IMG/VR virus record: IMGVR_UViG_2698536549_000028
Location: 1 to 21,331 of that record
Origin: a virus
Lineage: Duplodnaviria; Heunggongvirae; Uroviricota; Caudoviricetes
DNA length: 21,331 nt
Reading direction: 5' to 3' (one strand)
Shown: in pieces, positions 1 through 3,000 of the stretch
How positions within the stretch are numbered: the first letter of the stretch is position 1
How the letters are laid out: each line of letters begins with the position of its first letter
Made by a program: the position numbers

Positions 1-3000
1 TTAATTAAACTGCACTTCAGCAAATCCTGAACCTGACGCACAGGTATTTGATTTGATTGTTACCGTCATTCCTGTTAACTGTGCGCTTTGCAGTAGCGGT
101 TGCAGATTCCAGCGGTTAGTCCAGTACTCTTTCCCGGCCACTTTTACTGTGAATGTATCATTCTCATTATACTTAGAGAACTCAATTTTACCTTTTGCAC
201 AATCAGCTGCCATTGCATTAACAGAAACAAAAGCAAATAAAGCCGCTACAAATATCTTCTTCATATTTAACTCCTGTTATTCTCCGGATGTATTTAAAGA
301 GTGGGCCCTGCGATTCAGAAAAGCAGCTGCGGTATTACTTTCCCATAAAGTATTGTTTATCCTTATAACTGGCCTGTCGCCAGTTATCTGACATTCTGGT
401 TGTATCTCTTCATTCACGGCGCGAACGGAACGCGCCCCCTGATGATGGCAATTCAGTATAACCGCCACTGTGCCCAGTATCGCTGATATATTATTAAAGG
501 ATATTCGCCCCACTCTGACACCACCCTCTCCCCGAAACTCCGGAAGCACATTGCTGATTCTCCCCCAGTTCAGTGTGAGGTCCACTTCTTCCGGTGTCAT
601 CGTATAAACAGGAGCAGTTTCAGACAGTGCCAGACGAAATTCTCTCTGTATCTGCCTGAACCGTAAGGCTTCTGCTGTGACAGTGACAAAACGCAGAACT
701 GCTCTGGATGCATCTCTGGTCATGGCATTTCCACTAAACTCCATTAACGCCAGATATGATGAAACCAGTGAGTGACGACTGATTTGCATTCCGGAACGTT
801 CCAGCGCTGCGACACGTTGCAGAGTGGTATAGCTGCTGTCCGTTGTCATGGAAACAGTTGTCACACCGGGCACTGATATATGTGCAAAATCTGAAAATCT
901 GTAGAAAGTATTTGTTGCCGTATTAACGAATCCGGCCACATATAAATTATTTTGCTCAATAATCAGACGAAGATGGTCAAAACGCGCCTGATAGACATCA
1001 AGCCCTCGTATATCCACAGCAAAATAACTGCCCGGTGGGGTGTGGTTAATAACAGATACCGATGTGGTCCCCTGAGATATATGTTCAAGTGGGGTCGATA
1101 TTTCTGTCCGTATACTATTTAACGAAGAGACATAACTTTGTTGAGTCGAAAAGTCTATCGTAAATTCCCGGGAATAGGATACCGAAGAAAAGCCCAGTAA
1201 CAGGCACAGTACCCATTTTAACAATATACACTTCATATACAGGTATTCCTTTTGGCTGAAGTAATCAGCACCAGACCCGGCGCAGATATAAAAAAGGCCC
1301 GCAAAAGCGAGCCAGAAAAAATAAGTATGGCGCGTTGTACTGGATTCGAACCAGTGACCGATTGCTTAGAAGGCAATTGCTCTGTCCGGCTGAGCTAACA
1401 ACGCATGAAGTTTTCTGTAATCATCCTCGTTTGGTAACTGCCACTGGCTGACACTGAACCAGTGCGATGTCATGTTTTTCTTTCCTGTTTTATTAATTTT
1501 TCCCAGCAGAAGACAAGAAAAAAGGTTCCGGTGTTATCGGAACCTTTCAGCAGTAAGCATACAATTATAGACGCTATAACCATAACATATTTTTTTGTGC
1601 GCACACAACCCTTTCAGGTAGTACAACTTCAGGATCCATATCCAACCTTACTCCCTGCAGAGTCAGAGCTCCTTCCAGAAATGCTTCAGACGCCTTCAGG
1701 GATGTCCGTACGCTAAGATGACTACGGTCTATCGCCTCAGCAATTGCACGCGTTGAGAGGCCGCCTATAAAACGTAACCCCAGGATCAGCAAATCATCGT
1801 ACGGGCAAACCATACTCATATGCGCGATGCAGGTATCAATCACCGCTCCGTCCTCGTCAGAGCAACCGGGTTTGCCACTGTCGGTTACGTCCCGGGAAGT
1901 AACCGACATTGAGGGCCAGTCAACCATTGAACAGTATTCCTCGCTCGCCGCCCATCGCCCCCACCGCTCCAGAACAAGTTGCATATCTCTACGCATAACG
2001 CTGGCCTCTACGTTTTGCTACTTACCGTTCATCTTTCATTTTGAGGTTAGAAAGATGTTTAAGCCGCTGGCAATACGCTTTCCAGTAAGCCTCAGAGTGC
2101 ATCGGGTGCTCAATGTCGCTATACAGCCATACACAGTCGTCTCGCTGAGTTACCGGCGGTGGCGCTAACACATCTCGAGTGGCCTGCGTTAGTGCTCTTT
2201 TGAAGAAAAAAGCCTCCCCTAAGGGCTGGTAGTCTCTGTTGAATGCTTCCCAAGCCCCCTCAGCTGTTTTGCGGATACCGTAAGGCATACATTGGCGGAA
2301 TATCTTTGACATCGTCGTATCCTCATTTAGTTATTTGCTAATTTTTTCAAGTTAATTTCCGGGTGACGGCTAGGTGACGCGTAATTACATATCCGTCACC
2401 TGCTGCAAAGCGCGCCATATAAGGCCTGAAGATGTTTTAGGTGACAGGTGACGGTTGATTTTAGTTCTATATATAAGCGATCGTATAATACCTAAAATAC
2501 ACACTCTCGCGTATATAGTTTTAAATTCTGCCGTCACCTGTCACCTTTATCACATTTCCCATTGATTTATATATACTTTTCAAGGTGACGCTTAACCGTT
2601 TTGCCGTCACCTAGCCGTCACCTTTTTACAATCCAGATTGCAAAATTTCGCAAGATTTATATATTTCGCGCAATTCTTCGTTGCTGAAATCGTTATTTTT
2701 TACAAGAATCCAAATCCTATATACAAACCCGTCAATTTTTACGCGCACGGGTTCTCGCTTTGTTCTTTCTTTCAAAACGCGAGTAATATGCTTCTGGTTA
2801 ATTTCTACATCTATTCCTGCTTCTGCCAGTATTGCGTTAACAATTTGTTGATAAGTCATTGCTGGCACAGGAGGATTATCCAGGATTTCAATAAGAGCAG
2901 CCTCCACATCGCTCTTATTGCTTTCAATCATCAGAAGGCGTTCTTTCGTCTCGGGTGCGCGCTGCCAGTTAAAGCGAGACAGGTCAACGCCCATCAGATA

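Follow-up and report, generated by a model that had tools for sequence, protein, structure and literature searches.

A mirror-symmetric repeat array paired with the C-terminal tip of a Prim-Pol/DUF5906 protein is the probable replication origin of an Stx2b-converting phage

Introduction

In the staphylococcal pathogenicity islands known as SaPIs, the Rep protein, an initiator-helicase that is fused to a primase in SaPI5, binds iterons of 5–6 nt via its C-terminal winged helix, and the origin consists of 6–12 iterons directly 3′ of the rep open reading frame (ORF), with an AT-rich centre and at least two iterons per side in opposed orientation; the specificity differs between elements (PMC9371898). 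For the SaPIs, represented here by SaPIbov1, SaPI1, and SaPI5 with its PriRep5, our comparison rests on the summary given in that paper. The phage-inducible chromosomal islands (PICIs) of Escherichia coli are organised likewise, and the pri-ori segment of EcCICFT073 drives plasmid replication (PMC6092414); some replication proteins of Gram-negative PICIs (GN-PICIs) are DUF5906 proteins (PMC10111431). Here, we analyzed a 21,331-nucleotide stretch of phage DNA (Caudoviricetes; IMG/VR record IMGVR_UViG_2698536549_000028, positions 1 to 21,331), referred to as the window, which carries Shiga toxin (Stx) genes and the gene of a 753-aa replication protein. Directly 3′ of this gene lies an array of ten short repeat words, and we consider it likely that this array is the replication origin of the phage and the site read by the C-terminal domain of the adjacent protein.

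Related designs have been described in other elements. The alpha protein of the satellite phage P4 combines a primase, a superfamily 3 (SF3) helicase and a C-terminal winged helix in one polypeptide, and its short repeats are read in both orientations (PMC2777425, PMC4234260). ORF904 of the archaeal plasmid pRN1 consists of a Prim-Pol domain, an SF3 helicase and a winged helix, with an essential cis element directly downstream of its gene; a stem-loop of 100 nt, in which no iterons are recognised, forms the pRN1 origin, and the winged helix could not be matched with a cognate site (PMC2777425, PMC4234260). Among the Stx phages, the Eru10 type has a PF09250 protein followed by Q and the shortest cI-to-stx distance (Fagerlund et al. 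2022, PMC8951638). In that study the genes were only typed and no origin was described; according to the authors, nothing was known of the Eru replication proteins (PMC8951638).

Results and discussion

Ten short words in mirror symmetry around an AT-rich core

The 7-mer GGTGAC(G/A) occurs exactly ten times within 2362–2622, five times on each strand, and three more times across the remaining 21 kb (Table 1). For the 6-mer GGTGAC, the counts are ten in this interval and five in the rest of the window, with 0.07 copies per 261 bp expected from local base composition (Poisson P ~1e-18); in 100 simulated first-order Markov windows, at most 6 occurrences of any 6-mer fell within 261 bp. Read on the plus strand, the words run F F R F F, core, R R F R R (F, forward; R, reverse), with centre-to-centre spacings of 11, 21, 46, 7, 85, 7, 45, 21, and 11 nt. 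The centres of mirrored words sum to 4984, 4984, 4984, 4985, and 4985, a value constant within 1 nt, which reveals a two-fold symmetry centred at ~2492. The AT content of the core between the inner words is 70.5%, compared with 51% for the window. The array lies inside the intergenic region 2313–2625, 3′ of the minus-strand 753-aa ORF, and 3 nt separate its end from the stop codon. No other repeat cluster was detected in the window or in 38 kb of the matching prophage; the array is a single cluster.

The initial annotation, made from the sequence of the window, had proposed an iteron origin at 2330–2640 with at least ten GGTGAC(G/A) 7-mers in both orientations flanking an AT-rich core, and a near-perfect terminal inverted repeat (2361–2379 versus 2605–2623). 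The words and the core were found as described, and the 19-nt inverted repeat matches at 18 of 19 positions; the array does lie in the proposed interval, which is slightly too wide. The word "terminal" was a misnomer: the inverted repeat is the outermost word doublet on each side, that is, the outer part of a nested two-fold symmetry and not the end of a mobile element, as the array is present in one copy per genome and always linked to the gene.

Within the core, a small inverted repeat is formed by CTATATATAAGCG (2467–2479) and CTCTCGCGTATATAG (2504–2518). The motif CTCTCGCGTATATAG and its inverted partner are kept across most genera whatever the word type; some conserved component of the machinery may recognise them, or they may serve as a priming or melting site. 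Within the array, an ORF of 50 aa with a GTG start codon (2385–2537, minus strand) consists of core sequence and repeat words, and it probably does not represent a gene.

Table 1. Coordinates of the array, the replication gene and other features of the window
Feature	Position	Strand	Remarks
Whole repeat array, putative origin	2362..2622		ten 7–8-nt words, FF-R-FF / AT core / RR-F-RR
Repeat 10 (gene-sense order)	2362..2368	+	GGTGACG; outermost, gene-distal
Repeat 9	2373..2379	+	GGTGACG
Repeat 8	2394..2400	-	GGTGACG
Repeat 7	2440..2446	+	GGTGACA
Repeat 6	2447..2453	+	GGTGACG; inner, adjoins core
AT-rich core	2454..2531		78 bp, 70.5% AT; presumed melting region; holds small conserved inverted repeat
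Repeat 5	2532..2538	-	GGTGACG; inner
Repeat 4	2539..2545	-	GGTGACA
Repeat 3	2584..2590	+	GGTGACG
Repeat 2	2605..2611	-	GGTGACG
Repeat 1	2616..2622	-	GGTGACG; in gene sense begins 4 nt past stop codon
Specificity cassette	2366..2788		sole diverged patch (~72% identity) versus STEC435; array and codons 700–753
753-aa replication protein	2626..4887	-	Prim-Pol aa 75–185; DUF5906/NrS-1-like SF3 helicase aa ~418–661; C-terminal winged helix (modelled)
C-terminal domain, aa ~660–753	2629..2910	-	modelled winged helix
stxB	1..264	-	
stxA	277..1236	-	
tRNA	1331..1404	-	
Q antiterminator	1574..1996	-	downstream of array, same transcription direction
96-aa ORF	2022..2312	-	
Cro-like helix-turn-helix gene	4891..5115	-	first gene of rightward early operon, through replication gene and array towards Q/stx
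LexA/S24-type repressor	5223..5852		divergent
DUF2800 PD-(D/E)XK nuclease	8583..9884	+	
Enc34-type single-stranded DNA-binding protein (SSB)	9900..10448	+	
Family A DNA polymerase	12336..14399	+	phage-encoded
SNF2-like protein	17871..19265	+	

Co-variation of the repeat word with the replication protein's C-terminal tip

The array was compared across 20 loci (the window and 19 related elements) from 11 genera; for wider sampling, one genome per species was scanned and contigs were looked up. Full-length homologues of the replication protein, at 47–82% identity, were found in Citrobacter, Salmonella, Klebsiella aerogenes, Trabulsiella, Izhakiella, Serratia (two), Arsenophonus, Xenorhabdus (three), and Limnobaculum. 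The layout proved to be the same: in almost all loci the words lie at 4F, 15F, 37R, 81F, 88F and, beyond the core, at ~176R, 183R, 228F, 250R, 261R from the stop codon, and in all 20 the core measures 72–98 bp with 60–80% AT. The Limnobaculum array fits this layout loosely (7F + 2R), and that of Arsenophonus has an insertion past the stop codon and starts at 29 nt, compared with 3–5 nt elsewhere.

The words themselves differ between loci. GGTGAC, GGTGGC, GGTAAC, GGTGTC, GGTTGC, and TGACAC were found, and the copies within a locus change together. When the window was aligned with divergent E. coli versions, all ten positions were kept and the word was replaced at every copy: the window and the isolated phage vB_EcoM-606R2 have GGTGAC(G/A), four prophages have GGTGGC(A), and one has GGTAACA. 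The E. coli replication proteins are 97–99% identical over residues 1–700; their differences are almost confined to residues ~703–746 and sort by word type. Across the loci, the repeat word tracks residues ~703–727 (Table 2). The co-variation of the word with the recognition helix and wing implies a cognate protein–DNA pair, which strongly supports the proposal of the initial annotation that the array is the likely cis-acting site for the adjacent protein.

Table 2. Repeat words and the corresponding wing sequences of the replication protein
Word	Wing	Found in
GGTGAC(G)	EPVRVKIDGFVYRIW	E. coli, Citrobacter, Salmonella; only ~80% identity in the rest of the protein
GGTGACAG	EPVRVKVEGIAQRFW	Izhakiella
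GGTGTCAG	EPVRVKIDGCTNRFW	Klebsiella, Trabulsiella
GGTGGCAG	EAVKLKVDGMTVRMW	E. coli
GGTGGCAG	QA(S/N)AIKFNGKKERPW	Xenorhabdus szentirmaii, X. innexi
GGTAACAG	one residue longer, P(A/V)T(D/E/K)LVK...G(M/I)(G/A)YRFW	E. coli, Serratia, Arsenophonus
GGTTGCAG	QTGAIKFNGKTERPW	X. vietnamensis
TGACACAG	QWLTYQPRVNGVQVRPW	Limnobaculum

The sharpest case is the Stx2b prophage of STEC435, which is 99–100% identical to the window over 1201–5300 except for a sharply bounded patch at 2366–2788. STEC435 and CFIAFB20190157, an E. coli genome with an array 100% identical to that of the window, are annotated with the same Cro, repressor, 96-aa protein, and Q. Judged from these alignments, STEC435 and the window represent a natural cassette swap, in which the recognition tip and all ten words are exchanged.

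No other gene of the region follows the word. The same repressor and a 99%-identical Cro were found with both GGTGGC and GGTAAC, and two unrelated immunity regions were found with GGTGGC. An identical 96-aa ORF accompanies both GGTGAC and GGTGGC arrays, and unrelated downstream ORFs accompany one and the same word. Among the sequences compared, the C-terminal tip of the replication protein is the only partner of the repeat word. Two other candidates were rejected: the words are not Cro or repressor operators, as the cro–repressor intergenic region has no GGTGAC and word type varies independently of the immunity genes, and binding by the downstream 96-aa protein does not agree with the identical protein beside two word types or with the unrelated downstream genes that share one word.

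In E. coli, the array region was found as a single copy per genome in 45 of 5426 complete genomes, always on the chromosome (30 copies at ≥90% identity and 15 at 70–77%), and no copy was found on plasmids in this search. It is also present in four isolated non-Stx phages, vB_EcoM-606R2 and its relatives. The plasmid search revealed no full-length homologue of the protein, only distant ones.

Domains of the replication protein

Pfam matches of the 753-aa protein are Prim-Pol (PF09250) and DUF5906, with no match to Toprim, and the protein was assigned to PHROG 1156, "DNA primase". The protein itself and a 23-sequence profile were searched against all PDB chains. The only match was the NrS-1 primase-polymerase, to whose solved helicase domain (PDB 6k9c/6k9e) the helicase part is homologous (E 5e-19 with the profile); no chain of SaPI Rep/PriRep5 or P4 alpha was retrieved. 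The P-loop (3409–3423, codons 489–493) reads GTGRG, with Arg493 invariant in 23 homologues, versus GTGKG in NrS-1. An acidic pair, D535–E536, is conserved in a Walker-B-like context, and R594/R595 are invariant. In the structural model, the specificity-determining residues 703–727 fall within the recognition helix H3 (698–709) and the wing strands (714–718 and 721–727).

The N-terminal ~330 residues (3900–4887), which contain the Prim-Pol part, are 97% identical to E. coli proteins in which a VapE-type (PF05272) helicase half replaces DUF5906; VapE-type proteins sharing this part include P0046 and many others at ~60%. This indicates that primase and helicase halves have been shuffled.

The array as origin and competing explanations

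We think it very probable that the array at 2362–2622 is both the cognate site of the C-terminal winged helix of the 753-aa protein and the replication origin of the phage. Several points weigh against this view. The co-variation proves a cognate pair and not that this pair initiates replication. The likeness to SaPI Rep/PriRep5 and to the C-terminal domain of P4 alpha is one of architecture, with no sequence similarity detected, and the winged-helix model is of moderate confidence (predicted local distance difference test score, pLDDT, 75; Foldseek E > 0.01). Moreover, the lysine of Walker A is replaced by an invariant arginine, a substitution that is unusual for an active ATPase; ATPase and helicase activity should hence not be taken for granted.

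In a rival reading, the same C-terminal domain would bind the array for a mainly regulatory end, for example as a roadblock or by autoregulation between the replication gene and Q, timing the expression of late genes and Stx. Transcription that starts at the Cro-side promoter and runs to Q and stx passes through the array, which has no promoter or terminator of its own, as no minus-strand consensus for either was found within 2313–2625; the co-variation indicates binding alone. However, a conserved, fixed-length core of 70% AT with mirror-image flanks is a requirement of origins and not of roadblocks, SaPIs and PICIs have proven origins of this design, and the prophage has no other candidate origin cluster. 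We therefore regard a mainly regulatory array as improbable, although regulatory and origin roles could coexist. A functional hairpin is somewhat less probable still. In this case the repeats would form the stems of a long structure in the transcript or in single-stranded DNA, acting as a processing or attenuation element or as a stem-loop origin of the pRN1 kind. The minus-strand RNA does fold at -113.8 kcal/mol (z = -11.4 versus shuffles), double changes are seen in 26 of 51 consensus pairs, and in pRN1 a 100-nt stem-loop downstream of the Prim-Pol/SF3 gene acts as the origin (PMC4234260). Yet any such palindrome is expected to fold stably, and consensus pairing across the 11 genera is limited to the words and the small central inverted repeat, while the spacers neither pair nor compensate. 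The direct copies F1, F2, F4, and F5, which a hairpin does not need, change with the inverted ones, the word changes track residues of a DNA-binding fold, and Rfam has no family match in the region even at E <= 1.

It is very unlikely, finally, that a small mobile element, such as a miniature inverted-repeat transposable element (MITE) or an insertion sequence (IS), was inserted beside the gene with the 19-nt inverted repeats as its ends. An 18/19 inverted repeat does bound a 261-bp segment, but this repeat is two words plus a spacer, every locus examined has the array directly past the replication gene, and no further copies exist in the prophage; the single copy per genome in the 45 E. coli genomes and the absence of copies from plasmids argue in the same direction.

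If the array is the origin, replication would proceed as follows. After induction, the early rightward transcript would yield the 753-aa protein, and its C-terminal winged-helix domains would bind the five words on each side of the core. Oppositely oriented oligomers are known from the SF3 helicases of SV40 and papillomavirus. As each half-site mirrors the other, a pair of oligomers in opposed orientation (probably hexamers) would assemble head-to-head at the array, as has been proposed for SaPI Reps (PMC9371898). The 78-bp core would then melt, the same protein would unwind the DNA, and its Prim-Pol domain would lay primers or start DNA directly, before the phage's family A polymerase, SSB, and nuclease take over; the polymerase is probably a partner at the origin. 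We infer the firing of the origin from architecture and analogy, and likewise the physical binding, core melting, double-hexamer assembly, and start of replication at this site.

Comparison with described replicons

The array is a further case of a known Rep/ori design and not a new kind of origin. As in SaPIs and PICIs, short words, here ten, lie just 3′ of the initiator ORF, the first 4 nt past the stop codon; they flank an AT-rich centre (78 bp, 70.5%) as 5 + 5 words with inner pairs FF and RR, and word specificity can be assigned, from sequence and model, to the C-terminal winged helix of the initiator. Unlike in SaPIs and PICIs, the host element is a complete temperate phage (the Stx2b prophage; the isolated vB_EcoM-606R2) and not a satellite, a family A polymerase, an SSB, and a nuclease are encoded by the phage itself, and the 5 + 5 words, each of 7–8 nt, stand in strict mirror symmetry. 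The term "iteron" used by the initial annotation thus holds in the sense of SaPI/PICI-style repeats of 7–8 nt in both orientations, but not in that of the 17–22-bp direct repeats of classical iteron plasmids (RepA/pi/TrfA type) or of the lambda iterons.

P4 alpha resembles the 753-aa protein in combining a primase, a helicase, and a C-terminal winged helix in one polypeptide, whereas its primase is of the DnaG/Toprim type and that of the 753-aa protein is a Prim-Pol (archaeo-eukaryotic primase, AEP). Replication of P4 also depends on a further cis site, crr, which lies several kb away from ori; in the window and in 38 kb of the matching prophage, no such crr-like cluster was detected. The protein shares its domain order and a cis element directly downstream of the gene with pRN1 ORF904, but here, unlike in pRN1, repeat words are present. 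The closest solved relative of the helicase domain remains the NrS-1 primase-polymerase, with the P-loop difference noted above.

Lambda O/P replication is the classical type among Stx phages. In lambda and its relatives, exchange moves initiator specificity and the repeats together, and the pR transcript includes the origin. The same two features are found here, with specificity and repeats exchanged together and the array in the early transcript. Lambda, however, has four ~19-bp repeats inside the O gene, which are bound by the N-terminal domain of O, and P recruits the host DnaB. In the window, the words are 7–8 nt long and lie outside the gene, the proposed reader domain is C-terminal, and no homologues of O or P were found; the Prim-Pol/DUF5906 protein is the sole gene product encoded between cro and the 96-aa ORF/Q. 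The initial annotation was right that the replication type is not that of lambda, although the type agrees with Eru10 as already described. With the order repressor, cro, Prim-Pol protein, 96-aa ORF, Q, tRNA, stx, the window phage fits the Eru10 replication type as published.

A broader proposition, to which we give about even chances, is that this origin design reaches beyond satellites: it would be the native replicon of a widespread family of complete temperate Enterobacterales phages, including Stx2b-converting ones with their own polymerase, and would have an exchangeable specificity cassette (recognition helix, wing, and ten words) with at least six natural word/wing pairs. With this array, an origin design counted as a hallmark of phage satellites is probably also in use in complete phages, which bears on the criteria for finding satellites and on ideas of the ancestry of satellite replicons. 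For Eru10-like Stx2b phages, the analysis provides a precise, testable candidate origin (2362–2622) and initiator domain (aa ~700–730), two Stx2b phages that are near-identical over 1201–5300 and differ there only in predicted origin specificity, and natural word/wing pairs for specificity-swap work. Prophage replication after induction amplifies the stx gene dose and hence toxin output. If the proposition is true, the word/wing pairs would be a readable protein–DNA recognition code, from which one would expect prophages and satellites in the same cell to show cross-talk or incompatibility according to their origins.

Gene neighbourhood and related loci

The array lies within the path of the early rightward transcript, which runs on to Q and stx. 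The matching prophage is complete, with terminase, portal, capsid, tail, lysis, stx, and integrase genes. The phage's own replication set, comprising the nuclease, SSB, polymerase, and SNF2-like protein, is held in a leftward operon on the plus strand (8583–14399 and 17871–19265), which is interrupted by genes for an HNH/NUMOD4 endonuclease (8072–8590) and a Bro-N protein (10795–11595).

Some distant or degraded relatives were also observed. Proteus mirabilis pW47-1 (L030), an 8955-bp circular record, encodes a DUF5906 homologue with 28% identity over aa 341–753, and at 6720–6990, one small ORF beyond this homologue, ~11 copies of CGGTTACAA are present in both orientations. Listed as a plasmid, the record also has a tail tape-measure gene and may be an excised satellite or a phage fragment. 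This circular element, with its distant homologue and analogous array, is the sole hint that gene and origin suffice for autonomous replication. In one locus of Erwinia tracheiphila (L015) and two of an Arsenophonus endosymbiont (L016 and L022), the replication gene is frameshifted or contains stop codons and only a few leftover words remain downstream; these loci look like decaying prophages.

The tRNA gene between Q and stxA scores 70 bits with Rfam and is a tRNA-Arg by the annotation of the matching genome, where it adjoins a remnant DNA methyltransferase gene. Over the leftward early region (~5900–12300), collinearity between the window and CFIAFB20190157 is lost. The polymerase gene lies ~1.25 kb further along in the window than mapping to CFIAFB20190157 predicts, which implies that the window carries extra DNA there.

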